Source: an uncultured delta proteobacterium (lineage in GTDB: Bacteria > Desulfobacterota > WTBG01 > CAIYCZ01). From it: DNA of 64,000 nt. This document shows, one piece after another, positions 8,041-60,897 of the stretch. The DNA lies in the NCBI GenBank assembly GCA_963803975.1, contig CAWDOY010000001.1:128001-192000 (forward strand), in the 5' to 3' direction. Made by a program: the position numbers and the translations under genes. Below the pieces are notes generated by a model. It worked only from the letters and a program-made list of their open reading frames with translations, searched no databases and was not told the origin of the DNA. Each line of letters opens with the position of its first letter. Positions within the stretch are counted from its first letter, which is position 1.

Positions 8041-8050
8041 GCATGATCCC

Positions 8051-9033: not shown

Positions 9034-9042
9034 AGGTTTGTC

Positions 9043-9684: not shown

Positions 9685-9690
9685 CGGTTG

Positions 9691-40903: not shown

Positions 40904-41662
40904 CTATTTTTTGATTTTTGTCTCTACCGGCTCCCCGGGAGCGTAGCCACCCATTTCAGGGATGAGTGTTTCAAGATTTTCTTTCAGCGCCTGGTTTTTT
41001 TCGAGATCGGTTTTGACCGCCTCGATTTTTTTAACGTACTGCTCGCTGTTGAGCAGCTCGAAATTCCAGCGCGGTATATTTTTATCCATGGCAGCTGCCC
41101 CGGTTTTGTCCACCGCGTCAATGGCGGCCTTGTAATCCGAGAGCGCGTCACGTATCACGCCCTGGACTTTGTCGGCGTTTTTTTCTTCATCAAGCATGAC
41201 AAAGGCCTTCAGCAGCCTGGCTGAGGCGGCAACGTTATACAGCTGCCACATAACCTCCGGCCGCAGCTCACCGCCGCCGGTCAGCGTGCTGCTGCAGCGG
41301 TCAAGCATGGCGTCAAGGTGCTCCTTCAGGCGGGCGTTGTAGACAGGGACATCCTGCTCCAGCGCAGCATTATAGCGGCACATCTGGACAGATTTCAGCA
41401 GTGCCAGGGCGCTATGCCACTGCCGCTGCAGGATCCGCAGCTGCACTTCAGGCAGGGTGGCTCCGAGCTTCAGGTATGCGGCCGTTGCCCGGGCGTCATC
41501 GGTTATGGCATCAGCAGCTTCAACCTCCTGCTGAAACGTGCGGCTGTTGCGTTCGCGCTCCCTGAGGCTCTGATAACGGGAGATGTTTATGATGCTGTAC
41601 AGCAGCGACAGTGCGGCCGTGAGCACGGCCCCATACATCATTAGTGTGCGTTTTCCAGTCAT
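40904..41662 (-). CDS. Membrane-anchored helical/TPR-like protein, MxaK/BatC-like
   Basis: N-terminal TM; LYNVA..DYKAAI..RWNFELL resembles MxaK-type 'YN-G..Y-AL..KYNLE'; position between two VWA genes. Confidence 0.5.
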   Translation of the reverse strand: MTGKRTLMMYGAVLTAALSLLYSIINISRYQSLRERERNSRTFQQEVEAADAITDDARATAAYLKLGATLPEVQLRILQRQWHSALALLKSVQMCRYNAALEQDVPVYNARLKEHLDAMLDRCSSTLTGGGELRPEVMWQLYNVAASARLLKAFVMLDEEKNADKVQGVIRDALSDYKAAIDAVDKTGAAAMDKNIPRWNFELLNSEQYVKKIEAVKTDLEKNQALKENLETLIPEMGGYAPGEPVETKIKK

Positions 41663-41668
41663 GGTTGA

Positions 41669-42772
41669 TCAGATTTTTCTGTAATAAGGGTTTATCTGTA
41701 AAAAACAGTATATAAGGAGCGCGCAAAGGGTGCACGCGCCAAGGATCCAGCGCGTATCCTTTTTGCGCTTAACAATTTTTTCCAGGAAGCGGTTCTTTTC
41801 CATGGCATTGATTTCATTGTAAACCTCGGTGATTTTCTGCCTGCTGAAAGTCCGCGGCATGTAGAATATGTGCCCGGCCGTGGATTCTCCCTCAGGCCCT
41901 TCAAGGGCGATACGTATGTCGCTGGTGACGTCTCCCGCCACCACAATAAGATACAGTTTAATCCCGAGCTGCTTGACCAGTGCCACCACGTTGAGAAAAT
42001 TGAGCAGCCCCTTTTTCGCATCTTCCTCACTTTTGCTGGCCTCTATGCGGCCGTCGGTAAACAGCACGATGGCCATTCCCTGCCCGAAATGAATCTTTTT
42101 CAATTTCTCCGGAATGGCTATGGAAGCGCCTGATCTGCCCACCAGCGCGTAGCGCAGGTCGTTTATCTCCTCGTAGGAGGGCTGATCTTCCTCCGGCAGC
42201 AGCATGAAGAATACGCATACGGCAAGCCAGGCAGCGTAGGACGCATTGGTTGCGCCGCCCACGGTCAGCTCCCGGAAAATATAGGAATCAGCCCGCCTGC
42301 TCAACAGCTCAAGCTTTTGCTTCAGAATGCTCTTATCAAAAGCAGGGGGGGCGATTACCCTGGCAAAGCTTGAAAACGCCACAATGCCGATCAGATCATC
42401 CGTGCTGCGCATATCGATAAACGCGCGCGCGCCATCGAGCGCCACATCGCCGAGCGTGATGCGGCCGCCCTCATCGCCGGGCCTTCCCATGGAGCCGGAA
42501 AGATCCTGCACCAGCATGATCCATTTGGATTCAAGAAATGTCCTGTGCCAGTAGCTGGAGTACTGGATGTTGGCTATGGCAAAAACGATGAGCACCATGA
42601 CGAGCCCTGCCAGCATGTCCGCTGCGTACTTTTTTACAGGCCCTGGCTCAAGGCTGCTGCCCAGCATCGCGACCCGCGAAAATCCGGTTTTAACAGACGT
42701 TTTTTTCTGCAGGTACAGCACCGCCGGAACAAGCGCTAACAGGAGCAGTGCCCATGGGTATTGAATGCTCAT
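41669..42772 (-). CDS. VWA-domain membrane protein, MxaC/BatA-like
   Basis: YPWALLLL N-terminus; MIDAS DLSGSM, DLIGIVAFS, GATN, LFTDG; EINAMEK plus C-terminal TM. Confidence 0.8.
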   Translation of the reverse strand: MSIQYPWALLLLALVPAVLYLQKKTSVKTGFSRVAMLGSSLEPGPVKKYAADMLAGLVMVLIVFAIANIQYSSYWHRTFLESKWIMLVQDLSGSMGRPGDEGGRITLGDVALDGARAFIDMRSTDDLIGIVAFSSFARVIAPPAFDKSILKQKLELLSRRADSYIFRELTVGGATNASYAAWLAVCVFFMLLPEEDQPSYEEINDLRYALVGRSGASIAIPEKLKKIHFGQGMAIVLFTDGRIEASKSEEDAKKGLLNFLNVVALVKQLGIKLYLIVVAGDVTSDIRIALEGPEGESTAGHIFYMPRTFSRQKITEVYNEINAMEKNRFLEKIVKRKKDTRWILGACTLCALLIYCFLQINPYYRKI

Positions 42773-42782
42773 AGCGTGTATC

Positions 42783-44380
42783 TTACGCTGCTGCCTGCGA
42801 CCCGGTCAGGTCAAGCAGACGCAGGATTTCCATTCTGATCTGATCGATCTCCGGGCAGCTTTCCTGCTCAAGGGCGACAGCGTTATCAATGGCTGCCAGC
42901 ACCGTCTCCAGGGGGTCAAGATACTGCCCGGGGATATAGTTCCTGACGCTGTCGACAAAGTAGTGCGCGCTGCCGCCGGGCAGTGTACGGCTGTTGCCGT
43001 AGCGAGCCACTACATACTCGCGCAGCAGCGTTCCCGCCTCGTGAGATAGTGCCAGTGGGCGTGCGCGGGGGCAGCCTGCACCAGCACCCGCAGCCGTTCA
43101 GCAAGCAGGTCTTCTCTGGTCCGGAGCGTGAGGAGCCGCTGTTCTTGCCGCTGCCGGAAGAATAGAACAGCTACCCATCCCAGGCACAGGATACACACCA
43201 GCAACCCTCCCGCTGCCTGCCACAGGCTGCTCTGCGCCTGGTAATGCAGGGCGGAAGCCTGATAATCGGGCTGGACAGGCTTTGAGGGCACCAGCAGCCG
43301 GAACTCCTCTTTCACGGCCGGGACCATGGACGCGACCCGGAATGGTATTGGCCGGGTCTCCACAGAGCGAACGGTCTCCCCCGAACAGGCGGGGCAGGTA
43401 TAGCTCACGGTGACCGCCGGAATTACAAATTCGCCGGGGGCGAAGAATTTAATGCGACCCGTGATGATAACCGGGCTTTTGCTGATGACCTTGGTATAAT
43501 CATAGGGGTCAAAGCTGCAGTCAAAGAGCTCCTTTTGAATAGACGCGGGCCGGAGATTGATGTTTGCAATAGAGCTGGGGTCGATGCTCACCCGGTCGGA
43601 AAACAGGATGGTAAAGGTAAACGGGACCGTGTCACCGATGCGCCCGCCACTCATGGCAAGCGCCAGCTGCACTCTGATGGAAGGCTTAAGCTCTACGAGA
43701 TAGGGCCTGGCCCGGAGCACGCTGATATCTTCAGCGAGCAGGTTCAGCGCCTTGAAAAACGGGATTTCGAGAACATTCACCCGGTAGATGTTCTCTTTTT
43801 CATCGTACCCTGCCTGCGCCTGCTTCAGCAGGGCAGCTCTTCGCTCCCGGTCGGCACTTGCCTTCCACTCCAGGTCAAAAATATTGAAAAACGCCCAGGT
43901 TTTATCTTTAAGGATTATGGCCGGGTGAGTATAGAGCACCGCTTCGTCCTGGTTGAGCTGGTTTATGATTTCTTTCAGCTCATCCCGCTTCAGGCCCTCG
44001 CGCAGCCGGAAAAAGCAGGCGTCCTCGGCGATGTTTGCGTCATAAAAATAGTCAATAAGGCTGCTGCGGCTTTTAATGAGCGCTTTTGCTTTCTCCGGGA
44101 TAAACGTGTCGTAGGTGTCCTCAAGTCCGTTGGCCGCACCGGCGTAGCGGGAGTCAAACACGACGGTGAGCCACGTCATGCTGATGTCAGGCATTATTTT
44201 AGTGCTGCCATCATAAAACCAGATGTCGTCGAAGTTGAATGGGGCAGGAGCTTTTTTCTCCAGGGCGTTCGCGCTGAAGCGCGTCACTGCGGCGGCAGGA
44301 GCATGGACTGCCGAAATGCCGAGCGCCACGAGGAGCGTGATACAATATTTTTTTGTTAAGCAGTGTTTCCTACTGTGCAT
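42783..44380 (-). CDS. Exported protein with C-terminal TM, MxaA/BatD-like (frameshift near 43040)
   Basis: Signal peptide; RIGDTV..FFAPGEFVIPAVTVSY..V-S BatD-like beta modules; late TM. The 5' extension to 44521 runs through a repeat. Confidence 0.5.
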
Positions 44381-44425
44381 AGAACTATAGCCGAAGATTA
44401 TTTGTAATTTGTCTGTCTCACCAGT

Positions 44426-44554
44426 ACCCCCTCTGACTCCCCCTTGGCCCATCGGCCGTGAGCAACTCGGCCTTGAACTCGTTGCCGAAAGGCTCAGGGC
44501 CGAACGGCAGGGGGAGAACATTGCCCCTTCTTACCAAGGAGGGGCAGGGGAGGT
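44426..44554. repeat. Nested REP-like palindromic element inside the operon
   Basis: CTCCCCCT..GGGGGAG and CCCCTTCTT-ACC-AAGGAGGGG hairpins enclosing CCGTGAGC..GCTCAGGGCCGAACGG. Confidence 0.55.
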
Positions 44555-44616: not shown

Positions 44617-45494
44617 CTAATAGGTTAACGGAGCCCGTTGCATGAACTCATGTAACTTGTTGGTACGGTCATCTTCAGGCGTTATCGTCACCAGGGGAAT
44701 ACCGGCCCGTAAGAGTCGGTTGCCCAGCGTCTCCCGCCCCTGCGCCATGGTTTCATTATAAGCCTTCCATTTGCTCACATCAAGCAGCCTGGTTGCGCCG
44801 GTTTCATAATCATAGAGCGGCAGCAGGCCCCGGGAGTACGGGGGCAGCGCCACCTCGCTTTCTTCAAGCACCTGCACTGCCTTCACATCGTGTTTGTTGG
44901 TGCCGTGGACCGTGCGGTGGAAGCTGTAGCTGAAGTCAAGCGGATACATGAAGTCCGACAGAATAAACGTCAGGCTTTCGGGGACTTCAGTGACCAGCTT
45001 GGTCAGGGCGATCTGCAGGCTGGTGGAGCGGCACGCCACTGGTTCCGCGCGGGCAATGGCCGCAAGAATCTCCATGAAATGAGACCGGCCCATGCGCGGC
45101 GGAATATAGCTGACGATGTCATCGGCGAACAGGATCAGCCCGCAGCCGTTGTTGCTCATGATGGCGCTGTAGGCAAGCGACACCGCGATGTGCGCCTGGA
45201 GCAAGCTCCTTGCGGCCGAAGCTCACTGATGCTGCTGATGTCGTAGAGCAGCATGACGTTGAAATAGCTTTCGGCAAGGTACTCCCGCACGTAATATTTC
45301 CCGGTCTTTGCTTTTGCCTTCCAGTCGATGTTTTTAAACGGGTCGGTCGGCTCAAGCTCCCGCAGCGACCAGAATTCATAGCCCAGGCCTTTGAAGGTGC
45401 TTTCCCAGTCACCGGGAAACGGCGCGTTCACCCGGTGATTGATAAATATATCAAGCAGCTCTTTTTTTGACAGCAGGCTCTGTTCTGTTTTCAT
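44617..45494 (-). CDS. DUF58 domain protein, MxaS-like (frameshift near 45220)
   Basis: KGLGYEFWSLRE..DPFKNIDWKA.AKTG..VREY; FILSDF; directly follows moxR. Confidence 0.85.
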
Positions 45495-45502
45495 AGTGCC
45501 CG

Positions 45503-46526
45503 TCAGTACGGCCGTATGGTCTGCAGTATCTCCTGCACCAGCATGTCGGAGGTTATCTGCTGGGAAAGGGCACTGCTGTTGAGCAGGATGCGGTGCCTGA
45601 GGACGTGAACTGCACAGGTGGCCACATCATCAAAGGTGACAAAATCCCGCTGCCGACAGAAGGCATAGGCCTTTGCCAGCGCCAGCAGCGACTCTGTCGC
45701 ACGCGGCGAGGCCCCGAGCCGGATATACTGGTGCACCTCGCTGGCTGCAGCCTGCTCTTTATAGGTTTCATTCGGCCGGGTGGCAATGCAGATATTTAAA
45801 ATGTAGTTCATGACCTTCCGGCCCACCCGCACCCGGTCATGGATGAGCTGCTGGATGGCAATAATATCCTCAAGGCTGAAAACCTTCTGCACCGCTGCTT
45901 TCAGCTGGTCGAAATTGGAATTTTTTCTCTGCATGCAGCTCAAACTCCTCATCCTTGTGCGGATACCCGACATCATATTTTACCATGAACCGGTCAACCT
46001 GGGATTCCGCCAGGGGATAGGTGCCGATCTGCTCAATCGGGTTCTGGGTCGCCAGCACCATGAAGGGATTGGGTATCGCATAGCTCAGGCATTCGATGGT
46101 TACTTCCTTTTCCTGCATCGCCTGCAGCAGCGCGGACTGAACCTTCGGCGATGCGCGGTTTATTTCGTCGGCGAGAAAAATGTTGCAGAAAACGGGGCCG
46201 AAGTAAAAATCAAATTTCCTGTCCTTCTCATTCCACACCATGGTGCCGGTTATGTCGCTGGGCATCTTGTCCGGGGTGAACTGGAAGCGTTTGAAATTGC
46301 CGCTGATCACTTTTGCAAAGGTTTCAACAACAAGGCTCTTTGCCAGGCCCGGGACCCCCTCCAGCAGTATATGGCCCTTTGCCAGAAGCGCATACAGTAT
46401 GAGGTTGATCATCTCCTCCTGGCCGATCACAACTTTTGCGATCTCAGCTTTTACCTGCTGGATCTGTTGTGCATACCGGGTGAACTGCTCTTTCGTGCCG
46501 TCACCCGCTGTCACCTGATTCTGCAT
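45503..46526 (-). CDS. moxR: MoxR-family AAA+ ATPase, MxaR-like (frameshift near 45915)
   Basis: HILLEGVPGLAKS, RFQFTPD, LADEINRA, ATQNPIEQIGTYPL.E.Q.DRF, GASPRA, VLRHRI. Confidence 0.92.
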
Positions 46527-46578: not shown

Positions 46579-47610
46579 TCAAACCGCTTGCGGTACTTTA
46601 TAATCAAGATAGAGAAAAAACGGGCCGCCCAGCAGCGACGTGACAATCCCGATCTTCAGGTCAACCTTAACGATAAGCCGGACAAACAGATCGGCATAGA
46701 TAATAAAGACTGCCGCCAGCAGCCCGGCAAAGAAAACGAGCTTCCGGTTGTCCGGGCCGATCAGGCTGCGCATAATGTGCGGGGCAATCAGCCCGACAAA
46801 ACCGATAACTCCCGATACGGCAATCGCGCCCCCGGTCTCGATGGATGAAAATAAGAGGAGCGCATTGCGTGCCTGCTTGATATTGACGCCCAGATTGGAC
46901 GCTGTTTCTTCTCCGAGCATGAGGATATTCAAATCCCTGACATAGAACAGGGTCCCTGCCAGCGCTACGACCGTGGTGGGGAATACTATGCTCACATGCT
47001 CCCAGGAGCGGTTGTTCAGATCGCCCATGAGCCAGGTCACGATCACCCGGCCCACATCAAACTCCCTGGTGCTCAGGGTGATGACAAAGGAGGTCAGTGC
47101 GCCGAATACTAAATTGAGCGCTATCCCCGCGAGCAGCAGCGTTGATACCGATGTCTGCCCCCGGGAGGTCGCGATGGCAAAGACCATGACCAGCGTCAAC
47201 ACGGCAAACAGTATGGCGGCAAGGGGCAGGGCAAACAGCGAATGGGCTGCCAGGCCGGCATAGATCGCCAGCACCGCGCCCAGCGCCGCCCCTGAGTCAA
47301 TACCCATAACCCCCGGGCTTGCCATGGGGTTCTTGAAGATTCCCTGCATGATGGTGCCGGCGCCGCCGAGAGAAAATCCCACCAGAAGCGCAACCAGGAA
47401 GCGGGGCAGCCTGCCGTCCCAGACGATGGCGGCTTCAACGTCGCTGACGCTTCCTGTATAGAACCCGAGTTTTGCAAGAATAATTTTAAATACATCTATA
47501 ATGGCAATGGGCCACTCCCCTGACGTCAGGGTAAAAAAACCCCCCAGTACAATGAGCCCTGACAATGCGCCGGCCAGCAGCGCTTCTGAAGCCTTAGGGC
47601 TGTTGCGCAT
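46579..47610 (-). CDS. BtuC/FecCD-family ABC permease
   Basis: RLPR, QGIFKNPMASP, WLMGDL, LGEETASNLGV, GVIGFVGLIAPH, GGPFFL. Confidence 0.9.
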   Translation of the reverse strand: MRNSPKASEALLAGALSGLIVLGGFFTLTSGEWPIAIIDVFKIILAKLGFYTGSVSDVEAAIVWDGRLPRFLVALLVGFSLGGAGTIMQGIFKNPMASPGVMGIDSGAALGAVLAIYAGLAAHSLFALPLAAILFAVLTLVMVFAIATSRGQTSVSTLLLAGIALNLVFGALTSFVITLSTREFDVGRVIVTWLMGDLNNRSWEHVSIVFPTTVVALAGTLFYVRDLNILMLGEETASNLGVNIKQARNALLLFSSIETGGAIAVSGVIGFVGLIAPHIMRSLIGPDNRKLVFFAGLLAAVFIIYADLFVRLIVKVDLKIGIVTSLLGGPFFLYLDYKVPQAV

Positions 47611-48643
47611 ACAAAACTCCGGCAAGCAGATCGGCGCTTAAGAGCATGAACTGGGAATCAACCCGCAGATACACCCCGGGAACATAATACACTTTTCCCT
47701 GTTTATGGCCTGCGCAAAGGAGAGAACCTTATTGGACATCAGCAGCTCTCTCAGCTTGCTTCCCCGGGGAACGATAATAACATCGGGGTTCCATTTAAGC
47801 AGTGTTTCATTATCAATCTGCGACCAGGATTTAATGCCCTGCTCAGCCCCGACATTAACGGCGCCGATGATGCTGCAGATGGAATTAAAGTTTGATGACC
47901 GGCCCGGGATATACCCGCCTTCATCGTAATAGAGCACACGAACCGGCTTGTTGCCACCGGGGATGTCTGACTTCAGTGCCGCGATTTTTGCATCGATTAG
48001 ATTAACCAGTGCCTGCGCATTGGCTCTCTTCACCGACAATTTTTCCGATGAGCAGGATCTGCTCTTTAATGGACTCAATTGATACCAAAATAGCCGAGGT
48101 CAAAACAGGGGATCTTCGCCTGTCTGAGCTTTTCTTTAAAATCAGCGCCGGAATAAAAAACGGTAAAGACCAGGTCCGGCTGAAAGCCGATAACCAGCTC
48201 TGTCTGTTTTGATTTAAAAATCGGGCCCCGCTGCCGTACTTCATCTGCAATAAAGCTGAATTCAGGATCAGCGGAAAATTCATTGAAGGCTACCAGCCGC
48301 TCACGCGGGCAGATTGCCCATAATATCTCTGCAACGCCCACCGCGTGGGGAATTATGCGCACGGGCTGCTTCGCCAGGGTGAACGCTTTTTCTTCCTGCG
48401 GAAGGCATCAGTCTTAAAATCATACACCTTGAAGGTATAGGGTATGGTGCGCGGCCAGCTGTTGGTTTGCGCTTCACCCCTGACCAGGCTCAGCGCTTTT
48501 TTTAAATCATTCATGGGCAGGGGAGGGGAACCGTCCGGACTGCGCGCTGCCCCGCCGCGGGAGAGCAGCAGGCAGCAGAGACAGCAGGCCAGGTTACTGA
48601 GAAGCTTCGCGCACGCTGCAGACCACCGACGACTGTTATGCAT
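47594..48643 (-). CDS. BtuF/FecB-family cobalamin/iron substrate-binding protein (about 3 frameshifts)
   Basis: Joined ORFs 48353-48670, 48075-48362 and 47638-48078: RII....AEILWAI, E.VIGFQPDLV, ETLLKWNPDVII. Confidence 0.7.
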
Positions 48644-49400
48644 AAAAATCGAGAAAAGTGGCGCTGTCATTTTTGATATTCCCGTACCTGCACATCAAAT
48701 ACCTGTTTAATATTCTCCGGGGAGAACGCATCCTGCGGCGAGCCGGTATAAAATATTCTTCCCGCGATGAATAATTGATATCGTATCGCAGAATTTTCTG
48801 CGCAAGGTTCAGATCGTGCATGGTTACCAGGATGGTTTTGCCCTGCGCCCGCAGTTCGAACAGAATGTTCATAATTGCCAGCGTGTGCTTGATATCAAGC
48901 TCGGCGGTCGGCTCATCCAGCAGTATCAGGGATGCTTCCGTTGCCAGGGCGCGGGCGATTATCGCCAGCTGGCCTTCTCCGCCGGACAGCTCATTGATGA
49001 TTCGGTCCTTTAGTGCATACATAGCGGTCTGCTGCAATGCCCGCTCGATTATTTCCCGGTCCTTCTGCTGCACCCCTTCAAAGCGTCCCAGATGCGGGTT
49101 GCGCCCCATGGAAACAATATCAAACACCGAGATGGGAAAACTGACCGCGGTGTTTTGCGGCACCAGCGTAACCAGCCTGCTCAGCTCTTTTCTCGGTATG
49201 GTGCGGTAGTTTTTGCCCTCTATCAGGATGGTGCCGGACTGCGGCTCCCATATCCGGCAGACATTTTTCAGCAGGGTTGATTTGCCGGAGCCGTTCGGGC
49301 CGATGATGCCGTGAATTTTGCAGGGTTCAAAATGGACTGAAACCCCGTCAAGGATTTTTTTATCTTCAATTGAAAAATGGATATCCTGTATTGTGAGCAT
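48636..49400 (-). CDS. BtuD/FecE-family ABC ATP-binding protein (3' frameshifts)
   Basis: GPNGSGKSTLL, VSMGRNPH, ELSGGE, LLDEPT..LD, MHDLNLA. Confidence 0.9.
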   Translation of the reverse strand: MLTIQDIHFSIEDKKILDGVSVHFEPCKIHGIIGPNGSGKSTLLKNVCRIWEPQSGTILIEGKNYRTIPRKELSRLVTLVPQNTAVSFPISVFDIVSMGRNPHLGRFEGVQQKDREIIERALQQTAMYALKDRIINELSGGEGQLAIIARALATEASLILLDEPTAELDIKHTLAIMNILFELRAQGKTILVTMHDLNLAQKILRYDINYSSREEYFIPARRRMRSPRRILNRYLMCRYGNIKNDSATFLDFYA

Positions 49401-49412: not shown

Positions 49413-50196
49413 CTATGAGCACAGCCTGAATTTGTATGCAACCGGCAGAATAAATTTTGCTACCACGACACAGAAGAAACCAAAATATACGGATATGCTT
49501 ATTGCCGCTGCTGTCAGGTCCGGGGAGAATTCAGCGGTTATGCCCAGTGCCGCCCAGATGAAAATCTGCCCCAGCAGCAGCTGAAAGTTCTGGGCCAGGG
49601 TATATATTACCCAGAAGTTCTGCGAGAGCTTGAAAATTTCGCCCCTGCGGATTTTTATCTCAATGATTTTAAACCAGGTCCGGCCCTCAACAATCTGGGA
49701 CGATCCGTCGCACACATGGTGCAGCAGATACAGTACTACCAGCAGGTGGGGAGCAAAAGAGAGGCTCTGAAAGAAGTATTTAAAAACCGGCGGAAAGCAC
49801 AGCAGCAGGCAGACTGCCCCCAGGGACTGGCCGATGGCGATTGCCCACCTGCGCCCTGATTAAGCGGGGAATCTGCAGGCGCGGGTCCTGCGCGACCTCC
49901 AGCTGATCTATGAATTCCGATGTGTAGGTGCTCGAAATCATGGTTATCCCCGGATAGGCGTATTTCACCAGCACCCCCAGGATTGCAGCAACTTTCAGCT
50001 CCTGCTCGGCCATTAAAAACATGGTATAGAGAATCACGCCGTCAAGGATGTTTTTCCCGATAGTATAGCAGATATTGCCCGCCTCGCCATAGCGATAAAA
50101 GGGCACTGAGATAAGGGCTGAAATATATAATTTTATTTTTTGCGGTAAAGCCGGGGGTGTGTAGCCGGGGTATGTTGTTGTCTGGTCTTTTTCCAT
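49413..50196 (-). CDS. Hypothetical ~6-TM membrane protein (start uncertain; frameshift near 49845)
   Basis: ORFs 49780-50280 and 49413-49715 join into one hydrophobic multi-pass protein. Confidence 0.5.
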
Positions 50197-50274
50197 CTGC
50201 AGAAGCTCGGCAATGGCTCTGACCTGTTTTGAAGAATCCCGGTGGTGCTGTCTATTCGGGGAAGAAACAAACGA

Positions 50275-50315
50275 AAGCACAAAAGGGGCACTGACTGCAT
50301 GCCCCTTTTGTGCTT
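50275..50315 (-). terminator. Strong hairpin/terminator after eutBC
   Basis: Perfect 16-bp inverted repeat AAGCACAAAAGGGGCA / TGCCCCTTTTGTGCTT. Confidence 0.75.
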
Positions 50316-50321: not shown

Positions 50322-52609
50322 TTAACTTGCCTGCATTATTTCTTTGAGCAGTTTTACCGTCATTTTAGCAGCCTCTTCAGGCTTTGTCGCCTGGTTGGAG
50401 ATGCCGCACACGACTTTCACGATATTGTGGTCGCACTTCTTTTCTGCCCAGACTGTTGCCTTGGGCGCTGCGATATACACGGAGAATGCATTCTGGCCGG
50501 TGCCCGGCCGTTCGCCAATTATATGAATAACAGCTTTGTTCTTATTCGGGTCTGATTTTCCGAACAGAATATCGCCCGCCATGTATACCCGGCCCGCACG
50601 CGGCCGCTGGTACAACAATGTTCTGCTCCCCAACGGTCAGCCTGCATCTTTGAGCTCTTTTCTCACCTCGTAATATATGGCATGAGATGTCCCTGAGCCA
50701 TGATTGAATTGGCGTTTAACCCGTCAGAGATAACAATCTGCACATCAGGATCTTTCCCTGCCCATGAATCCCGCAGCTTTTCAAGGGTTGCCACTGACTG
50801 CTCGTTCAGTTGTTCACCGGTAGTGGGACGGACAATGTAGTTTTCGCGGTCCTTCGACAGGGTAGCAAGCTGAACTGCATTGGGAATGGTCTTTATAAAC
50901 TCCGGGGTAAACTCCGCCCAGATAGCTTTTTTGGCATCAGCGTAGAGTTCACGTATCCTCTTGTCCAGTCCCGGATTCAGATCCCAGATATTTTTACCAT
51001 ATCCGGAGGCCAGAGGTACTTTGTTTCCGGTCTCAAGCCACGTATTATAAATAGCATCAAACTTCTGTTTGCCTTCAGCATATATTTCCTGTTCAGAGCG
51101 CTTGTCGCCTTTAGCTGCGCAGAACTGATAATATACCCAGATGGGATCTCCGAAGTGCTTGGTGGGTTTGCCGTTCTTGTCAATAACCTGGATGCGCTTG
51201 AAGAATTCCCACATGGCATCATTTACCTTGAAGCCGAATTTGTTGCGCAGGCGCACATGGTCCTGGTATGAGGTAGTCAGGTAGCTCAGCATCGGGTCAT
51301 TCCTGGTAGGAAGAGCCATGAGATAGGCCGGGTTTGCCGGCATAATCTGATCCTGGCACCACTGCAAGGTCATCAAGGCTTACTGACATGTGCAGGGTGG
51401 AGCAGATATCAAGGCCGGAAGTGAGCCCCTGCAGTTTGCCCATTAATATATCTTCAAGGCAGCAGCGCACCAGCTGTTCCTTGGTTCTGAACACCTCCGG
51501 GCCGATGAAACCGGCAACATCATTAAAATGAGTATAGGCGCCCTGCGGCTGGACTTCAGCAAGGGTCTGTTTCAGCCCGCGGGCAAACCCGTACTTGCGG
51601 GATTCAAGCACCACCATGTCCACGCCTTCAGCAGCGCCGTTGGTGAAATCAGAGCCCTGGCCGGTCTCGTAATACAGCCCGTATCGTCTGATCCTTGCGG
51701 GCTTTTGCATGATTGACCATCTTTTCAACGGTCACGTCAAACACCTTGTTTGCCGCGTCAGTTCCTGCCAGGCTCTGGAAGAAAAAATCAACCAGTTCCG
51801 GCTTCTCTTTAAAAAGTTCCCCCTGCACGTCAACATGGGATAACACGCACCAGGGAACAATCCCCTTTAATTTGAACGCATCGACAACATCCTTAAGGGC
51901 TGCTTCTACTTTTGCAGTTTGTTCTTTTGTCCCGTCCACCGGGTTAGTCCCGAGCACTAAATCGCCTACCGCGTAGGAGAATCCATTAAGTGTCTGCCAG
52001 ATAATTTCCTCGGGATCATCAGTGGGGGAATTGGGCTGAATGCGGGCGCTCAGATAGCCTTTGGCCCCGATCTTGGTGCCGGGCAGCGGATTGAAGATTT
52101 TCTTGTCTACCGCAATCAGCTCCTGATTGCTCATGAGTTTGGGCATACAGCCAACCACCTCGCTGTTCATGCCGTACATGACTGCCTTGATTTCAGCTTC
52201 AGGCTTGGTCAGGAGATAGGTTTTCATCTTCCCCATGGTCCAGTCCTTAATTTTTTCGTACTGGGCCGAATCAGTTGCTTGGGCGATAAATTTGTAAAGA
52301 TTGTCATTAAGCAGGGGGTGCTCCGTGATATCCTTGATTTTGGTATTAGCTAAAAGCTTACGGGCATTTTCCCTGCTGGTATTATCGTCGGCAGCATACG
52401 CCGATTGCCTGGTCACCCTCTTTAAAGGCATTTGCCGCACCGATTACCTGCTGATACAGTGTCTGGTCAAAAGAACCCTTAACCCGTTCAATATATTTGA
52501 AGACATCTTCACCGGGTTTGACGTCCTTAATGGCGATGGCACTGCTGTACGTGCTGAAAGCAAAAACCCCGAGGGCAATCATCGCTGTGATCGCAATAAA
52601 TCGTTTCAT
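50322..52609 (-). CDS. eutB: Fused ethanolamine ammonia-lyase EutB-EutC with N-terminal Sec-type signal peptide (4-5 frameshifts)
   Basis: EutB motifs AANAFKEGD, SARIQPN, GDLVLGTNP, CVLSHV, FQSLAG, YYETGQGS, GFIGPE, LEDILMGKL, GLDIC, DPMLSYLTT. EutC motifs DRENYIVRP, DVQIVISDGL, IGERPG. ORF 50663-51376 spans the B/C junction with no stop. Confidence 0.9.
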
Positions 52610-52718
52610 ACGCTGATCCCTCCCATATAAAATAGGTTATTCAGGTTGTTTGCGTCCTGCTCGGTAAAACCCAAGACTCAATTTTTATAATTATTTGAGC
52701 ATTTACTTCTTGCGCAAG

Positions 52719-52789: not shown

Positions 52790-53615
52790 TCAGAAAGCCA
52801 CTTTAAGAGTAACGCCGCCATAGACCCAGCTGGAATTTGTATTTGAGTCGGGGCCGCGTGTTATAGCATTGAAACTGCTCTGTCTGATATTGGTCTGCGC
52901 TTTATTGCTCATCGGACATGAGTAGTTAATTGACGGCACGATCGTTACAAAGCTGTTGAGCGGGATGTTGTATGCCGCCCAGATGTTGGCGTCGTGCATG
53001 GCCTCGTAGTCGTAACTCGTGCTGTTGATGCTCATGTAGCTGATCCATCCGCCCACATCCAGAGACTGTTCTCCGCAGTAACCGAAGATTTCTCGTTTGC
53101 CCGTGGAAAAAGAGTGGGATACCCCTAAATTAATATACCAGCGGTCTCCGCCCAGGGCTATTTCCCGGTATATGCTGAGGGTCGGCTTGAGCAGCACATC
53201 AAGGCCCAGGGTCGTAAACAGTTCCTGGCTGGCTCTGGTGATACGTGGAGGGATCGATATCGTAATAGATGTAGCCGAAGGTGTAGTTCAGTTTTTTCCA
53301 GCTGTTGCTGTAGGTGAGTATCCAGTCTGTTTCCCACCATTTATTCTGGGAATCTTCCCCCGGGTTCCCCTTATATGCGGTATCAAGATCGCCCCACATA
53401 TTCATGCTGAACCCCTTGTAGGAAACGGTAATGGAGGGGAACATCACCAGGCTGTCCTTGCTCAGTTCATACCCTCTCCACACATACTTTGAATAGAATG
53501 TCCAGGAGAGGTTGCAGGTAGGCCGCTCCTCCTTGTCCTCCTGGGCAAGCACCGCGGTGCTGAACGAAAACACCATGAGGCCAAGCATAATTGTTAGAAG
53601 AATTTTTTTACCCAT
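52790..53615 (-). CDS. Outer-membrane beta-barrel protein, TorF-like putative porin (frameshift near 53225)
   Basis: Signal peptide; SKYVWRGYEL, ETDWILTY, GYIYY; alternating aromatic strands; C-terminal YGGVTLKVAF. Confidence 0.7.
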
Positions 53616-53705: not shown

Positions 53706-54158
53706 TTATTCTGCGGCTTCAGGGGCTACAATTCTTGTGCCGCTAAAGAAGAAAAAAATGGGATCCGTGGGAACGCCCTCCCCTTTCAGCAATGCAAGCC
53801 CCACTCCTAACATGGTCTTACCTTCACTAAGTATCGCGCCGGTAAAATACATGGAGAGGCTTGAAGCAGCTATGCCGCCAACTTCCACATCGTAAGCGCT
53901 ATAGGTAGTAAGAAAGTATGTGTTTGGATCCAAGACATACGTGTAATATGATCCTTTGCCAGCCCCAAGCGAAAGCAGGAACACAGTGTCTGTTTGAAAG
54001 GTAGCATCTGCATTGAGGTTTATACCGACTGATGTCATAATCGACAACCGATACACGCTTCCTGTCAGCACTGTTTGAGCGTTTGCGGCTACTGAAGAAA
54101 TGCCGATTAACAGAACCGCGCAAAAGCAAATAGCTAATAGTTTTTGTTTTTTCAACAT
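53706..54158 (-). CDS. Hypothetical secreted beta-rich protein
   Basis: AAGGAGG RBS; signal peptide ending ANA; 150 aa. Confidence 0.6.
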   Translation of the reverse strand: MLKKQKLLAICFCAVLLIGISSVAANAQTVLTGSVYRLSIMTSVGINLNADATFQTDTVFLLSLGAGKGSYYTYVLDPNTYFLTTYSAYDVEVGGIAASSLSMYFTGAILSEGKTMLGVGLALLKGEGVPTDPIFFFFSGTRIVAPEAAE

Positions 54159-54208
54159 AGTGTCCTCCTTTTTGTTTGGTTTGTTAACAGTTCTTTACCC
54201 CTTGTTTT

Positions 54209-54670
54209 TTACTCTACAACTATTGTGCCCGTGAACTCCTTGCCTGCTTCGATTGCTCCCTTCTGCCCCGCGGCTTTCATTTGGGAAGGCCGCGTAACTG
54301 TATACTTGTATGTTCCCCTTTCAATAAAGCAGATGCTTGCCACCGCACCGAATTTAACCTTTTTGGCAATAAAAGCGCCCTTTGAATCCTTGTTGAAATT
54401 GACCGGGTTCTCGCAGGCAGTGGTTATCTCTTTATCGGGAAATATTATTGACACCGGTGCCATGGCTTCGTTGAGCCAGATTACCGTGGTCCCGAGATTG
54501 ACCTTCAGGGTTTCAGGACTAATGCCGTTGGGATAGTTAACCTTGATGACCTGGTGCCCCGCAAGTGTCTTTTCCTGGGCTGCGCCTTCCTCTTTTGCCA
54601 TGGCAGTATTGAAAGGAATCAGGATTAAACCAATACAGGCAACTAATAATAAAACCTTTATTACTTTCAT
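54209..54670 (-). CDS. Secreted cupredoxin-fold-like protein lacking the type-1 Cu motif
   Basis: GGAGG RBS; signal ending AMA; SPETLKVNLGTTVIWLN..F.ERGTYKY..GTIVVE. Confidence 0.65.
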   Translation of the reverse strand: MKVIKVLLLVACIGLILIPFNTAMAKEEGAAQEKTLAGHQVIKVNYPNGISPETLKVNLGTTVIWLNEAMAPVSIIFPDKEITTACENPVNFNKDSKGAFIAKKVKFGAVASICFIERGTYKYTVTRPSQMKAAGQKGAIEAGKEFTGTIVVE

Positions 54671-55200
54671 AGATACCTCCGTGCTGATTATTTTGTTTTT
54701 GAGCTGCAAGAAAAACTTCCCCTATATAGCGTCTCTTTTAAAAAGAGTTATAAAAATTATGTTGTTCGGAAAAAAACAAGATGCCGCCGTTAGTACTTTA
54801 TAGTAGCTGTAACAGCTCAGTATAAATAGTAGAGCAGCATCCTATAGCAGACGCAATCTTTGTCTCCTCAGTTAATAACCATGATGGTTTTGCCAACCAT
54901 CCCCAACCCCCTGTTGCCGGAGGATTAATTTATTAAGTTTAACTAAACACCTTGATTTTATAATGTCAAGCGTTTTTTTTATTAAATAATATAATATTTC
55001 CGCTCTACTTGTAGCCCTACGATAAGAGTTTTCAAGAAAAAATTAATTTTATATTTATAGTAATATTAATTTATTTTGCAAATAATGTTTATTGCACGGG
55101 TGATATTTAATTGACTGTTAAGGACTTTTGATATAAGGGTACACATAATTATAATGTACCGGGTGGTGTGCAGAGAACAACTTTTTACAGGGGGTCTTGC

Positions 55201-56031
55201 ATGAAGAAGAAAATGAACAAGGCCGGAGGTGCGGCAATAGTAATTGCATTAGTATGTATTGCGGGATGCTCATTCATCGAGTTGCGCTCGCCCGTAGTTA
55301 TCCATACCGGGCAGAAAGCCGGCGGCGAAGCACCAGCAGCCTCTGTTCAGACTGACACAACAGCCCTGGAACCATCACCCTCTGCAGAGGTTACGGGTGA
55401 GAGCACCTCTCCGGCAGGCATCCAGGTTTTAACTGATCAGGATCTCAGCCAGCGCCGGTATTCGTCACTTGGCCGCATTACGGTTACAAGCCCGGACAAG
55501 AAAGGGTTCACCAGCGAACAGGCAGAGAAGGATCTGAAGATAATGGCCTTCAAGCGCTTCGGCGCCCTTGCCCAGGGGATTGCTAAAATTGAATACCAGG
55601 AGAAGTCCGGGCTGTTTTCTGCAGGACAAAACATCTATCGTGAAGCATCAGCAGAGGTGATGACCATGGCAACCGCGGGGGAGGCTGCTCAAGCAGGGGA
55701 ACAGGCCTCAGTGCAAAGCGGCGGCACCATCCCTTCCCTTGAAAATATTGTTGTTGTTTCCTCTGATGAACTTTTTAACCGCAATTTCAAAGTGCTGGGC
55801 AAAGTAACGGTGCGTGACGCAACCCCCGAGGGCATGAGTGAAGAACAGGCGGTTAAATCCCTGAAAATCGAGGCCTACCGCCTTTTCGGCTCACGGGCAA
55901 AGGGACTGAGCAGTCTCAAGCTGAAAAAAGAATATCCCATCTATTTTTATAAAAAGCCGCAATACAGCCCGCCACCGCAAGTGGCCAAGGGCTATAATAA
56001 AGCAACCGCGGAAGTTTTGTACTGGCCTTGA
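55201..56031 (+). CDS. Hypothetical lipoprotein with two tandem internal repeats (YbjQ/RcsF-like)
   Basis: Lipobox IAGC; repeats RRYSSLGRITV..AEKDLKIMAFKRFG and RNFKVLGKVTV..AVKSLKIEAYRLFG. Confidence 0.6.
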   Translation: MKKKMNKAGGAAIVIALVCIAGCSFIELRSPVVIHTGQKAGGEAPAASVQTDTTALEPSPSAEVTGESTSPAGIQVLTDQDLSQRRYSSLGRITVTSPDKKGFTSEQAEKDLKIMAFKRFGALAQGIAKIEYQEKSGLFSAGQNIYREASAEVMTMATAGEAAQAGEQASVQSGGTIPSLENIVVVSSDELFNRNFKVLGKVTVRDATPEGMSEEQAVKSLKIEAYRLFGSRAKGLSSLKLKKEYPIYFYKKPQYSPPPQVAKGYNKATAEVLYWP

Positions 56032-56037
56032 TGTTTT

Positions 56038-56433
56038 ATGATTACAAAGCTGCTGACCGGCGCTATTATCATATGCCTTTTTTTCAGCTGCTGCCGTTTT
56101 ACCAGACCCGCTAAAATCAACACAGGCCCGGAGTTCATAACCTTTGAAGCTGACCTCGGGCCTGTTCTTTTTTACCACCGCAAACACCAGCGCTCTCTGA
56201 AACAGAACTGCGTCCAGTGCCACCATAAGGGCAGCGAAAAGACCCCTGCCTGCCGGAGCTGCCATAAAAAGAAGCAAGATACTGCTGAAGAAGACCCGAT
56301 CTGCTTTTTTGACGTCACGATGAACCTGTGCCGCGGGTGTCATCAGCGGGAGCGCGACCAGGAGACCTCAAAAAAAGCCCCCATCCACTGCAACGAGTGC
56401 CACGACACGAAAAAAATAAAGTGGTCAAAGTAA
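56038..56433 (+). CDS. Tetrahaem cytochrome c3-family protein
   Basis: GPVLFYHRKH; four CxxCH motifs (CVQCH, CRSCH, CRGCH, CNECH); N-terminal export signal. Confidence 0.85.
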   Translation: MITKLLTGAIIICLFFSCCRFTRPAKINTGPEFITFEADLGPVLFYHRKHQRSLKQNCVQCHHKGSEKTPACRSCHKKKQDTAEEDPICFFDVTMNLCRGCHQRERDQETSKKAPIHCNECHDTKKIKWSK

Positions 56434-59764: not shown

Positions 59765-59914
59765 CGTATGCGATAGTCTGTACAAACCAACGCAAAAGTT
59801 CCGACCCTGAACTCTCTCGCCTGGTGCCTTTTCTTCCTTCGGGTCACGGGTCACGTGCCACGAGTCGCGTATTTCAATATCTATTGACACCGTCAAACTA
59901 ATGGAGTATTAATT

Positions 59915-60085
59915 TTAACATAAAGGTACCTGCTATGGTTTAAAAGGGAAGATGGTGAGAATCCATCATGGTCCCGCCGCTGTGATCGGGGACGAAATCC
60001 ACGTAATGCCACTGTCCTGAGATGAATCGGGATGGGAAGGTTTGGAGAGTAGGATGATCCGAAAGTCAGAAGACCTGCCTTTATG
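59915..60085 (+). promoter_or_regulatory. Cobalamin (AdoCbl) riboswitch
   Basis: AGGT..TAAAAGGGAA-GATGGTGAGAATCCATC-..CCCGCCGCTGTGA..GCCACTG..GGGAAGG..AAGTCAGAAGACCTGCC B12-box; TTGACA at 59884; upstream of cobU. Confidence 0.95.
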
Positions 60086-60138
60086 ATAGCAGTCGCGGAA
60101 CTCGATCCTTGCATAAAAGGGTGAAGTAAACTGGGTGC

Positions 60139-60180
60139 AACCCTCAGGCTGTAGTTATGACCTGAGGGTTTTTGTTTTTT
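60139..60180 (+). terminator. Riboswitch expression-platform terminator
   Basis: AACCCTCAGG..CCTGAGGGTT-TTTGTTTTTT. Confidence 0.8.
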
Positions 60181-60366
60181 GAACCAGATGAACCACAGTA
60201 GGACACAGAGGTTACATTGTATAATTTTGATTTGTCTTCTGGGTCGTCCCTGTGATGTTTTAATAATTACAGCTATTTACATAACGGTTATTCTGCCATC
60301 GGCGAGCGCTCAGAGAACCGCAGTATTGGGGGAATTAGATTCTTCTGAGATCTCAGTGGTTATCTT

Positions 60367-60897
60367 ATGTCCGAAAAAACTCTCACACTCGTCACCGGCG
60401 GCATCAAGAGCGGAAAAAGCTCCTGGGCGCAGCAGCAGGCTGAGCGCTTAAGCGGCACCAGGGCGTTTGTCGCGACCGCACAGGCGCTTGATGATGAGAT
60501 GAAAGACCGCATCGCAAAGCACCGGCAGGCACGGGGGGATGCATGGGTAACCTTTGAAGAGCCAAAAGACCTGGTGCCGCTGGTGGATGATATAACCGGC
60601 AGGTTTGATATCATCCTGATCGACTGCCTGACCATATGGCTGTCAAACCTGCTCACGATCTACCGGATGGATGAAGAGGCGGCAGCGCAGCAGATTGCAG
60701 GGCTCAGCGCATGTTTCAGCCGGGCCGCGTCCCGGGTATTTGTTATCTCCAATGAAACCGGCATGGGGATAATACCTGCTGATCCGCTTTCCCGGCTGTA
60801 CCAGCGACTTCTGGGCAGTTTGAACAGCGAGGTTGCCGCGGCAGCGGACGAAGTTTATCTCATGGTCTCCGGCATCCCGGTGAAGATAAAACCGTGA
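60367..60897 (+). CDS. cobU: Adenosylcobinamide kinase / cobinamide-phosphate guanylyltransferase
   Basis: LVTGGIKSGKS, DDEMKDRIAKH..R, DCLTIWLSN, SNETGMG, MVSGIP. Confidence 0.95.
   Translation: MSEKTLTLVTGGIKSGKSSWAQQQAERLSGTRAFVATAQALDDEMKDRIAKHRQARGDAWVTFEEPKDLVPLVDDITGRFDIILIDCLTIWLSNLLTIYRMDEEAAAQQIAGLSACFSRAASRVFVISNETGMGIIPADPLSRLYQRLLGSLNSEVAAAADEVYLMVSGIPVKIKP

Follow-up and report, generated by a model that had tools for sequence, protein, structure and literature searches.

Ethanolamine ammonia-lyase (EAL) is, in textbooks, an enzyme of the cytoplasm or of microcompartments, and to our knowledge AdoCbl radical enzymes have been described solely inside the cell. The locus analysed here lies in a 64,000-nucleotide stretch of DNA from an uncultured delta proteobacterium (hereafter, the window), the minus strand of which carries, at 52609-50322, a gene for a fused EutB-EutC EAL that begins with a predicted export signal. 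It raises the question whether an enzyme of this class could work on the outer side of the inner membrane. We conclude that the gene probably specifies a single-chain, AdoCbl-type EAL with a cleavable Sec signal that would act in the periplasm, and that the frame-broken state of the copy in the window most likely reflects consensus error.

We identified the two parts of the fusion with Pfam profiles on the translated pieces of the gene (50322..52609; all features below are on the minus strand). PF06751 (EutB) matches pieces 2-4 and PF05985 (EutC) matches pieces 4 and 5 (55.4 and 39.4 bits, against a cut-off of 25.8). In the list of open reading frames (ORFs), piece 1 spans 52382..52609; piece 2 (51649..52440) covers EutB profile positions 23-264 with the SARIQPN and GTNPV motifs (E = 3.2 × 10−72), piece 3 (51297..51728) covers positions 272-366 with YYETGQGS and GLDICSTLH (E = 5.9 × 10−39), and piece 5 (50322..50633) holds the C-terminal half of EutC (profile positions 159-226). 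The fusion junction lies in piece 4 (50663..51376), where one frame runs from EutB positions 365-434 of 435 (E = 3 × 10−18), including KHFGDP, through a linker of about 70 residues into EutC positions 32-120 of 235. The first-pass annotation had placed the junction in this single frame and had argued that the fusion is not a frameshift artefact; both statements hold, given that the junction is within one frame and that both Pfam domains occur in all 120 listed relatives. Its description of the product as a single chain is correct for relatives such as P0001 (761 aa), but not for the window DNA, which has five ORF pieces in three frames.

Relatives of the fused protein numbered 2966 at E <= 0.001 among 3547 candidates, intact members (about 760 aa) are plentiful, and the 120 listed relatives share 69-97% identity with the junction piece. 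The equivalents of R160, Q162, N193, E287, D362 and Y404 of E. coli EutB, which we take to be its substrate-site and catalytic residues, were mapped through an alignment to 3abo_A and do not vary in any of the 79 family rows. The earlier claim that these residues are intact is thereby confirmed, and the motifs in which they had been located (SARIQPN, GTNP, YETGQG, GLDIC and LSYLTT) were all found and align to them; the role of Glu287 in EutB is treated in passages of PMC8473560 and PMC4413051. P0001 passed the NCBIfam EutB model NF011649 (638 bits, cut-off 554); the EutC part reached 93.6 bits with the EutC equivalog NF003971, below its cut-off of 230, which counts against our main reading. 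A first AlphaFold model from a 12-sequence alignment was poor (pLDDT 64.7) and was superseded by a 74-sequence run, in which P0001 was predicted with pLDDT 89 and pTM 0.87, residues 1-22 forming a poorly defined lone helix (pLDDT 41-58). The predicted fold matches that of solved EAL chains (Foldseek TM 0.87 to 3abo_A and 0.70 to 3abo_B).

By Pfam domains, fold and substrate-site residues the family resembles canonical EutB and EutC (E. coli, Salmonella, Listeria; PDB 3ABO, 2QEZ), with 33% identity to E. coli EutB, but differs from them in several respects. It is joined to E. coli EutB by a very long branch of the tree, has 11 extra residues ahead of the NDVAGFIGPE motif, and has a EutC part that scores under the NCBIfam cut-off. 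Canonical EAL consists of two subunits, whereas the fused family is one polypeptide in which the linker replaces the N-terminal part of EutC; canonical EAL is cytoplasmic or microcompartment-bound, whereas the fused family has a predicted N-terminal export signal. A further difference lies in the genome, which is 98% complete and in which we found no BMC shell gene and no convincing EutA reactivase.

Nucleotide alignment to L001, the assembly of a close relative, showed that seven indels of 1-2 nt cut the window gene into at least five pieces. Three are +1 indels, near 52396, 51686 and 51365; the other four form a cluster at 50585..50675 (-1 near 50671, 50642 and 50612, and +2 near 50588). At all seven sites, contigs from relatives carry a compensating change and are in frame. 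Identities of P0001 to the five tblastn segments of the window gene were 100%, 98%, 94%, 89% and 84%, the lower values being caused by out-of-frame stretches at the junctions; outside the junctions, the window pieces are 98-100% identical to this intact protein. Of the codon changes that could be polarised, 18 synonymous and 12 nonsynonymous ones fall on the window lineage, and none creates a stop codon. Beside these stand 7 indels, whereas under neutral decay substitutions are expected to be several-fold more numerous than indels. Because none of the seven sites is out of frame in the related contigs and the indels come with too few substitutions, we favour local consensus error, as the likely cause of the breaks, over real decay.

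Real decay, with the window copy, its paralogue and some of the accessory genes as pseudogenes, nothing functional encoded here and the exported lyase system being lost, appears rather unlikely, but several observations are in its favour. The second eutBC copy, on another contig, is also broken, by at least two indels, one of which lies within its signal peptide, and the operon neighbours MoxR, DUF58, the binding protein, c2 and c3 (described below) are likewise split. Most of the indels lie outside homopolymers, and the ratio of nonsynonymous to synonymous changes is higher on the window lineage (12/18) than on its sister (16/62). The damage is also local: the frameshift-pair rate, a crude measure, is the same genome-wide as at control loci (2.09 vs. 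2.04 per 10 kb), which rules out uniform assembly noise, whereas the two 10-kb bins of the operon hold 11 and 7 such pairs, the bin with 11 being the top hot spot of the genome (mean 1.95). Conversely, the indels, all of 1-2 nt and with gains and losses in balance, look like consensus errors, and the AOR and Ech-type hydrogenase genes that follow the second copy are intact. Moreover, L001 is itself fragmented in other genes of the same operon while its eutBC is spared, a pattern that would fit mixed reads of related populations at a highly conserved locus. Among sequencing runs, none contained more than 31% of the words of the gene. Contigs from RNA libraries match portions of the gene with >= 88% likeness; they belong to relatives and may stem from DNA, and we make no claim of expression from them.

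The start of the gene is well defined. A GGGAGGG ribosome-binding site (52618..52624), read directly from the sequence, precedes the ATG at 52609 with a spacing of 8-9 nt; the first-pass annotation had already named GGGAGG as this site. The translated N-terminus reads MKRFIAITAMIALGVFAFSTYSSA|IAIK, and its first 24 codons (52538..52609) encode a predicted Sec-type signal peptide with an MKR n-region, 15 hydrophobic residues (FIAITAMIALGVFAF) and the stretch STYSSA, the predicted cut falling before IAIKDVKPGEDVF at an S-S-A|I site. All the sequence features expected of a Sec/SPase I signal are present in the leader and are retained by its orthologues, so that the earlier description of it as a classical Sec signal is sound as far as prediction from sequence goes. 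The accompanying statement that it lacks a twin arginine is likewise accurate: the pair is K-R rather than R-R, and the curated Tat-signal model TIGR01409 does not match the window leader at E <= 1.

We then classified the leaders at 80 loci from named genomes, of which 27 are Sec-like, 45 are of the Tat class (35 Tat, 8 Tat plus lipobox, and 2 Tat-like with KR or RK), 5 lack a signal and 3 are truncated. Since most other lineages have Tat signals, what is unusual is that the family as a whole appears to be exported, Sec being one route of two. On the family tree, the signal type changed at least three times, and the pairing of one orthologous core with export signals of three kinds argues that a periplasmic location may be under selection. 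Sec-like leaders have a length of 24-36 (median 26), every one of the 28 having Ala at -1 and A, S or C at -3; RR is present in 1 of 28. The hydrophobic segment is retained in all 27 Sec-like loci, its sequence drifting and its character being preserved. A lipoprotein reading of these leaders was rejected, as any Cys sits at -3 and not at +1 of a lipobox. The family occurs in the cultivable genera Syntrophotalea, Geomonas, Ensifer, Rhizobium and Myxococcus.

At least three switches between Tat and Sec-like leaders in one tight family would come easily if both used a single route, and the n-regions of the Sec-like leaders retain K/R-R-like pairs (MKR, MQR, MRR, KKRK); the Geomonas RF6 leader has MRR, and its export route is ambiguous. 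Such leaders might then be atypical Tat signals, the chain crossing folded and cofactor-loaded, or the N-terminus might not be used for export at all and the protein be cytoplasmic. The latter would agree with the five relatives without any signal and with called starts inside or past the hydrophobic segment in 2 of 12 fetched proteins (P0074 and P0108, the called start of P0108 leaving no hydrophobic segment), which count against export. Both variants nevertheless appear very unlikely. TIGR01409 detects 24 of the 45 Tat-class N-termini at E <= 1 (9 of them above the cut-off) but 0 of the 28 Sec-like ones, and the h-regions of Sec-like leaders are shorter and far more hydrophobic than those of Tat rows (median of the best 12 residues, 2.76 in 28 Sec-like N-termini vs. 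2.07 in 27 Tat rows); a short, strongly hydrophobic h-region directs a chain to Sec. The position of the ribosome-binding site, which serves the upstream ATG, and the retention of the hydrophobic segment throughout the Sec-like loci speak against the same variants.

So long and hydrophobic an h-region (15 residues in the window leader) also favours SRP-dependent membrane insertion, and the segment could be an uncleaved signal anchor that keeps the enzyme attached to the inner membrane, the body of the protein lying in the periplasm. The conserved membrane protein c3, the gene of which follows eutBC, would fit such a tether, as in reductive dehalogenases the anchor subunit gene follows the enzyme gene. 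We consider this quite unlikely: in every Sec-like leader the residue at -1 is Ala and that at -3 is small, right before a conserved mature start, (I/V)(A/T/N)I, and this argues against a pure anchor, since signal peptidase I needs those residues. Under the reading that we prefer, the Sec signal peptide would take the chain across the inner membrane and would then be cleaved.

The genes around eutBC bear on how such an enzyme could function. Upstream lies c2 (52790..53615, two pieces), a signal-bearing protein of about 275 aa that may be an outer-membrane barrel (its orthologue in locus L003 has a weak Pfam Gcw_chp match, 25.8 vs. 24 bits). Downstream follow c3 (49413..50280, two pieces), a multi-TM protein of about 260 aa with no family in Pfam or NCBIfam, an ABC transporter ATPase (48636..49400), a Peripla_BP_2 periplasmic binding protein (47638..48670, three pieces), an intact FecCD-family permease (46579..47625), a split MoxR-class AAA+ ATPase (45506..46526, with AAA_3 in one frame and AAA_lid_2 in another) and a DUF58 protein divided between two frames (44620..45626). 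The apparently intact c6 (a 506-aa signal/TM protein), c9 (a BatA-type VWA membrane protein) and c10 (254 aa) occupy 40907..44530. An assignment of c3 as an oligosaccharide flippase was discarded; its named protein-atlas neighbours are flippase fragments with a score of 0.88, below the trusted level.

For the transporter, we compared the L003 orthologues to NCBIfam models. Corrinoid models score best for the permease (BtuC-type, 277 bits vs. a cut-off of 461) and the ATPase (corrinoid ABC ATPase, 235 vs. 537) only, both below cut-off, whereas BtuF gave 21 bits against a cut-off of 234 for the binding protein. The nearest solved relatives of the latter bind heme or iron complexes and BtuF is absent from its 26 solved-structure matches; a 'BtuF-like' label was dropped. 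The transporter is a putative corrinoid carrier; the scores below cut-off, and its membership of a class known for import that would provide no obvious periplasmic supply, count against our main reading. In loci with at least 4 kb downstream, to which the linkage counts were restricted, c3, Peripla_BP_2, FecCD and MoxR each occur in 12 of the 15 Sec-like loci and in none of the 34 Tat loci, an association that rests on few independent transitions (at least three label changes on the tree). Many Sec-type relatives also have a PotD-like amine-binding protein in the operon. We found no cobalamin riboswitch ahead of the operon in the window, where the sole one faces the opposite way and precedes CobU; in the loci of relatives (n = 6), one riboswitch was found, not in front of the operon.

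Linkage of a corrinoid/heme-class ABC transporter to 12 of the 15 Sec-like loci, cobamide genes close to eutBC under the cobalamin riboswitch, and the lack of an EutA reactivase would also suit an exported protein that is no lyase, and that binds or stores corrinoids in the periplasm for the neighbouring transporter. This is most improbable. The six invariant substrate-site residues would be needless in a mere binder, the whole barrel is extremely conserved at the identities given above, and the family is linked to AOR, Ech hydrogenase and ADH genes. Growth on ethanolamine of Pelobacter (Syntrophotalea) carbinolicus strains, whose two fused eutBC genes are named as lyase genes, points the same way (PMC3543383, in the passages available).

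The fusion was noted in that bacterium in 2012, as eutBC1 and eutBC2 (Aklujkar et al. 2012, PMC3543383). According to these passages, P. carbinolicus has the same fusion with two paralogues per genome, flanked, as here, by periplasmic binding, multi-TM and unknown proteins, and the cluster includes a corrinoid-type ABC transporter, VWA proteins, an ATPase and an aldehyde:ferredoxin oxidoreductase, with no eutA. The same main-text passages treat the enzymes as ordinary lyases and leave a signal peptide unmentioned. Two Syntrophotalea loci in our set (L056 and L072) belong to the same family and have Sec-like leaders. Our literature search found no paper that describes export of fused EutBC.

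For the lyase that we favour, it is reasonable to infer that the cofactor is acquired outside the cytoplasm: the chain would fold in the periplasm and take up a cobamide coenzyme where EutB meets EutC, with c3, the corrinoid/heme-class ABC transporter and the MoxR-DUF58-VWA set as candidates for cofactor supply or insertion. AdoCbl enzymes become inactivated and are normally reactivated at the expense of ATP, for which the periplasm offers no means; this counts against our main reading. If the enzyme is routinely exported and, in the Sec-type lineages, its chain crosses unfolded, a dedicated co-encoded machinery made up of these candidates might load the cobamide in the periplasm, in analogy to the Mxa system of methanol dehydrogenase, and so replace both the microcompartment and the cytoplasmic reactivase, a proposal that we regard as doubtful. 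One parallel is offered by the reductive dehalogenases. RdhA is exported by Tat, and we know of no reductive dehalogenase that uses Sec instead. As proposed for the fused EutBC, it is a corrinoid enzyme outside the cytoplasmic membrane, and its gene, like eutBC, has that of a small membrane protein (here RdhB) downstream; RdhA differs in having an unrelated fold and in being a Co(I)/Fe-S reductase rather than an adenosyl radical enzyme. In the part of PMC6095959 that we cite, RdhA contains cobalamin and is anchored by RdhB. A second parallel is the periplasmic PQQ methanol dehydrogenase MxaFI, for which a MoxR-class ATPase and VWA proteins encoded alongside help to load Ca2+ and PQQ (passages of PMC12276312). 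The MxaR/S/A/C/K/L set resembles the eutBC locus in gene types (the order here is MoxR, DUF58, unknown, VWA, unknown), but MxaFI is another enzyme with another cofactor; a role of MoxR-DUF58-VWA in cobamide loading is our conjecture from this likeness.

AdoCbl radical chemistry would be periplasmic in a large clade that is tightly conserved and has signals of the Sec, Tat or Tat-lipoprotein type. This raises the questions of how adenosylcobamide gets to the periplasm and stays there, how inactivated cofactor is replaced without ATP, and whether cells can deal with a toxic intermediate by releasing acetaldehyde outside the cytoplasm instead of using microcompartments. The case is sharper for the Sec-type members, whose chain must fold and bind the cofactor after export, and the transporter and MoxR/VWA genes beside Sec-type but not Tat-type loci are testable candidates for that step. 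With carriers among cultivable bacteria, these questions are directly testable.

Substrate would reach the enzyme through the putative outer-membrane barrel and, in many relatives, the PotD-like protein, and ethanolamine or a close amino alcohol would be converted to ammonium and acetaldehyde in the periplasm. The aldehyde would then diffuse into the cell and be consumed by cytoplasmic enzymes, candidates for which are the aldehyde:ferredoxin oxidoreductase and Ech-type hydrogenase beside the second copy and, in rhizobia, a Zn-alcohol dehydrogenase. In the rhizobial loci, this Zn-ADH is signal-less and lies 31-240 nt upstream.

The fused eutBC gene runs on the minus strand from an ATG at 52609 to a stop codon at 50322, as read from the sequence, with a ribosome-binding site (GGGAGGG, 52618-52624, minus strand) 8-9 nt 5' of the ATG, and the N-terminal translation is MKRFIAITAMIALGVFAFSTYSSA followed by IAIKDVKPGEDVF. 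The ORF list holds no single open frame for this gene and gives five overlapping minus-strand pieces in three frames: 52382-52609 (75 aa), 51649-52440 (263 aa), 51297-51728 (143 aa), 50663-51376 (237 aa) and 50322-50633 (103 aa). Pfam matches to EutB fall in pieces 2-4 and those to EutC in pieces 4-5, with piece 4 carrying in one frame positions 365-434 of the 435 in the EutB profile and 32-120 of the 235 in EutC. Since the EutB end and the first half of EutC share this frame, the fusion is genuine, as the first-pass annotation had held, and all the motifs it listed are found in the translation; its observation is real except for the description of a single chain, which does not apply to the window DNA.

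Nucleotide alignment to L001, the closest related locus fetched (90.7% identical), places seven indel events in the minus-strand gene: +1 near 52396, 51686 and 51365, −1 near 50671, 50642 and 50612, and +2 near 50588, most of them outside homopolymers. Against P0001, an intact 761-aa relative, tblastn returns five segments (100%, 98%, 94%, 89% and 84% identity), with the drops in identity located at the out-of-frame junctions. At all seven sites, contigs of related populations (two DNA runs, two RNA-library runs) carry a compensating change, and the indels are therefore peculiar to the window's assembly; no sequencing run examined contained more than 31% of the eutBC words, so that none of these runs is the source. 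By a crude count, frameshift-like ORF pairs occur at 2.09 per 10 kb in the window's genome and at 2.04 in ten loci from other assemblies, and the genome overall is not noisy. The two bins of the operon hold 11 and 7 such pairs, 11 being the top of 456 bins (mean 1.95), and the genes for MoxR, DUF58, the binding protein, c2 (a putative barrel upstream of eutBC) and c3 (a multi-TM protein downstream) are also split. The next hot spots, with 8 pairs each against the same mean, are 80000-90000 of contig C45 and 40000-50000 of contig C25.

Substitutions were polarised with L001 as sister and the related loci L003/L005 as outgroups (69 codons ambiguous), giving 18 synonymous and 12 nonsynonymous codon changes and no stop codon on the window lineage, and 62 synonymous and 16 nonsynonymous changes on the L001 lineage. 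The raised N/S ratio on the window lineage and the local clustering of the indel damage speak for real, very recent decay, an explanation that we keep alive; seven indels on a short branch with few substitutions are better fitted by consensus error than by drift, and we regard it as reasonably likely that the breaks are an artefact of local consensus error, which could arise from reads of related populations drawn to highly conserved loci. In L001 (12324-16636), eutBC is intact and the c3, ABC ATPase, binding-protein, permease and MoxR genes of the same operon are fragmented, which may point to an assembly problem that recurs at this conserved locus.

A second fused eutBC lies on contig C48 of the window's genome (about 2075-11560 with its neighbours, minus strand); the two copies are 75% identical at the family level (P0105 vs. 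P0001), and the P0105-like C48 copy is broken at least twice, once within its own signal peptide. The frame-broken state of both copies, together with a test that favours artefact, is new here. On the same strand 3' of the C48 copy are intact subunits of an Ech-type [NiFe] hydrogenase and a ferredoxin-fused aldehyde:ferredoxin oxidoreductase (AOR), and together with the eutBC copy these genes may form a coherent module converting ethanolamine to acetate and H2.

Intact P0001 aligns with solved structures of ethanolamine ammonia-lyase (EAL), both of heavy chains (2qez, E 9e-67; 3abo, E 8e-58) and of light chains (E about 2e-12); it passes the NCBIfam EutB model (638 vs. 554 bits) and misses the EutC equivalog (93.6 vs. 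230 bits). An AlphaFold model from 74 sequences (pLDDT 89, pTM 0.87) matches 3abo_A at TM 0.87 and 3abo_B at TM 0.70, with residues 1-22 forming a lone low-confidence helix. E. coli R160, Q162, N193, E287, D362 and Y404, listed in the first-pass annotation as matching the EutB substrate site, align with R189, Q191, N222, E314, D400 and Y442 of P0001, and all six are invariant in 79/79 family rows; at the M392 equivalent, 57 rows have M and 22 have I. A role for Glu287 in EAL is described in PMC8473560 and PMC4413051. Gene context supports acetaldehyde production, because Ech hydrogenase and AOR follow the second copy, AOR is close to some Sec-like loci (3/15), a Zn-alcohol dehydrogenase without signal lies 31-240 nt 5' of eutBC in several rhizobial Tat loci, and in P. 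carbinolicus the genome paper (PMC3543383) identifies the two fused eutBC genes as the lyases. The same paper reports growth of P. carbinolicus strains on ethanolamine and no eutA. Fused EutBC was already described in 2012 (PMC3543383); the fusion is common to both systems, whereas a signal is not mentioned in the portion of that paper available, and titles and abstract openings on EAL export, periplasm or Tat gave no pointer to an exported EAL. No BMC shell gene was found in the window's genome (98% complete), and its sole EutA match is a 44-position partial to a model that also matches 5/14 control genomes. Four rhizobial Tat-type loci (L026, L031, L038, L041) have the signal-less dehydrogenase directly 5' of eutBC, with GH94, glucoamylase-like, CBS-BON and phosphoketolase genes recurring nearby.

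With the junction piece as query, 3547 candidates of 416-2000 aa gave 2966 proteins at E <= 0.001; each of the 120 listed has both Pfam domains and 69-97% identity over the piece, and most are 743-776 aa long, with Geobacter, Geomonas sp. RF6, Desulfuromonadales and Thermodesulfobacteriota among named sources. In a 50%-identity representative library 216 matches reached E <= 0.001, 48 of them E <= 1e-30; the family is compact and shows tight sequence conservation. Two library proteins, P0129 (1110 aa) and P0135 (894 aa), have the junction 100-340 residues deeper than usual, so that some members probably carry extra N-terminal domains. EutB matches occur in 11/42 genomes of the window's class, every intact frame being 589-795 aa, and the ~450-aa EutB form was not seen among these 42. 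A one-genome-per-species scan found at least 516 relatives among at least 599 pattern matches, and the best 80 loci, which were kept, include Geobacterales, Desulfuromonadales, Syntrophia, Desulfobacterales, Rhizobiaceae, Phyllobacteriaceae, Myxococcota, Bacteroidota and Planctomycetota.

For each locus the N-terminus was read over the stretch between the in-frame stop 5' of the gene and the conserved core, with 14 rows corrected by hand. Among the best 80 of at least 516 relatives, 27 loci have a Sec-like signal, 35 a Tat signal, 8 Tat plus lipobox, 2 a Tat-like signal (KR or RK), 5 no hydrophobic segment and 3 a truncated N-terminus. The 28 Sec-like leaders (27 loci plus the window) are 24-36 residues long (median 26), with Ala at −1 in 28/28, A (15), S (7) or C (6) at −3, and RR in 1/28. 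Their median best-12-residue hydrophobicity is 2.76 vs. 2.07 in 27 Tat rows (Mann-Whitney p = 4e-8, on related and thus non-independent rows). The curated Tat-signal model TIGR01409 matched 24/45 Tat-class N-termini at E <= 1 (9 over its 16.7-bit cut-off) and 0/28 Sec-like leaders. A Sec-exported cofactor enzyme, as proposed in the first-pass annotation, is the best reading of the window leader by sequence, strengthened because export signals are present family-wide. The Geomonas RF6 N-terminus, MRR, counts against the Sec picture, and so do two of the 12 proteins fetched first, P0074 and P0108, with starts inside and downstream of the hydrophobic segment, respectively, probably through differences in start calling. 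The five signal-less fused paralogues (L058, L060, L067, L077, L078; 4/5 Myxococcota) keep all active-site residues, and in Archangium sp. SMAG_U3264 a Tat-lipoprotein copy (L057) coexists with a signal-less one (L078).

The EutB portions of 76 loci plus P0001, P0105 and P0112 (L008, L029, L046 and L072, with <650 residues, left out) were placed in a maximum-likelihood tree with E. coli EutB as outgroup, in which the fused proteins cluster tightly and a very long branch separates them from the outgroup. Tat or Tat-lipoprotein signals occur in the lineages that branch deepest (Myxococcota, Planctomycetota, Smithella, Bacteroidota); the Sec-like lineages fall inside a 57-row clade (support 100), and nested within it are 30 rows forming a clade (support 99) in which Tat signals prevail once more (Rhizobiaceae, Syntrophia, two Geobacteraceae). 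The tree requires at least 3 changes of the Sec-like label, with no direction claimed because the root is a single distant outgroup; this repeated switching of signal type is new here.

Gene order is conserved across Sec-like lineages: a PocR-domain histidine kinase (sometimes present), an SBP_bac_6 binding protein, a signal-bearing protein of ~275 aa (weak Gcw_chp match, read as an outer-membrane barrel), eutBC, a multi-TM protein of ~260 aa without family, an ABC ATPase, a Peripla_BP_2 protein, a FecCD permease, MoxR AAA+, DUF58, a signal/TM protein of ~530 aa, a BatA-type VWA protein and a 252-aa protein. The window keeps this order from c2 to c10, without the SBP_bac_6 gene. The SBP_bac_6 protein is similar to the polyamine-binding proteins PotD/PotF (E 1e-9 to 1e-12); the best NCBI models for permease and ATPase are BtuC and corrinoid-ATPase, at scores under their cut-offs. 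For the Peripla_BP_2 protein the similarity is to binders of heme and iron complexes, and a BtuF identity was rejected on these grounds. Among 53 loci with at least 4 kb downstream (15 Sec-like, 34 Tat-type, 2 signal-less, 2 unclear; loci whose eutBC ORF the crude gene caller missed left out), c3, Peripla_BP_2, FecCD and MoxR each occur in 12/15 Sec-like loci, not the same 12, and in 0/34 Tat-type loci, a contrast that stands on few independent transitions. The finding that this module (transporter and MoxR/VWA) is confined to Sec-type loci is new here. Periplasmic methanol dehydrogenase needs a MoxR/VWA set for cofactor (Ca2+) loading (PMC12276312), and the eutBC module may be likened to it by analogy, not homology.

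The stretch 5' of c2 (53706-54709, minus strand) encodes two small proteins (150 and 166 aa) that bear signals and match no family. Next comes a divergently transcribed pair (55168-56433, plus strand), a class III cytochrome c (131 aa) and a 287-aa protein of unknown kind, which is also kept beside the operon in L001. Further along (59907-62437, plus strand), a cobalamin riboswitch (118 bits) lies 5' of CobU (60349-60897) and a B12-binding radical-SAM protein (61325-62437), which resemble genes for the cobamide lower ligand and nucleotide loop, presumably bza-like. The radical-SAM gene is probably also frame-broken, since its product is 370 aa in the window vs. 511 aa in L001, where the region has an additional O-methyltransferase.
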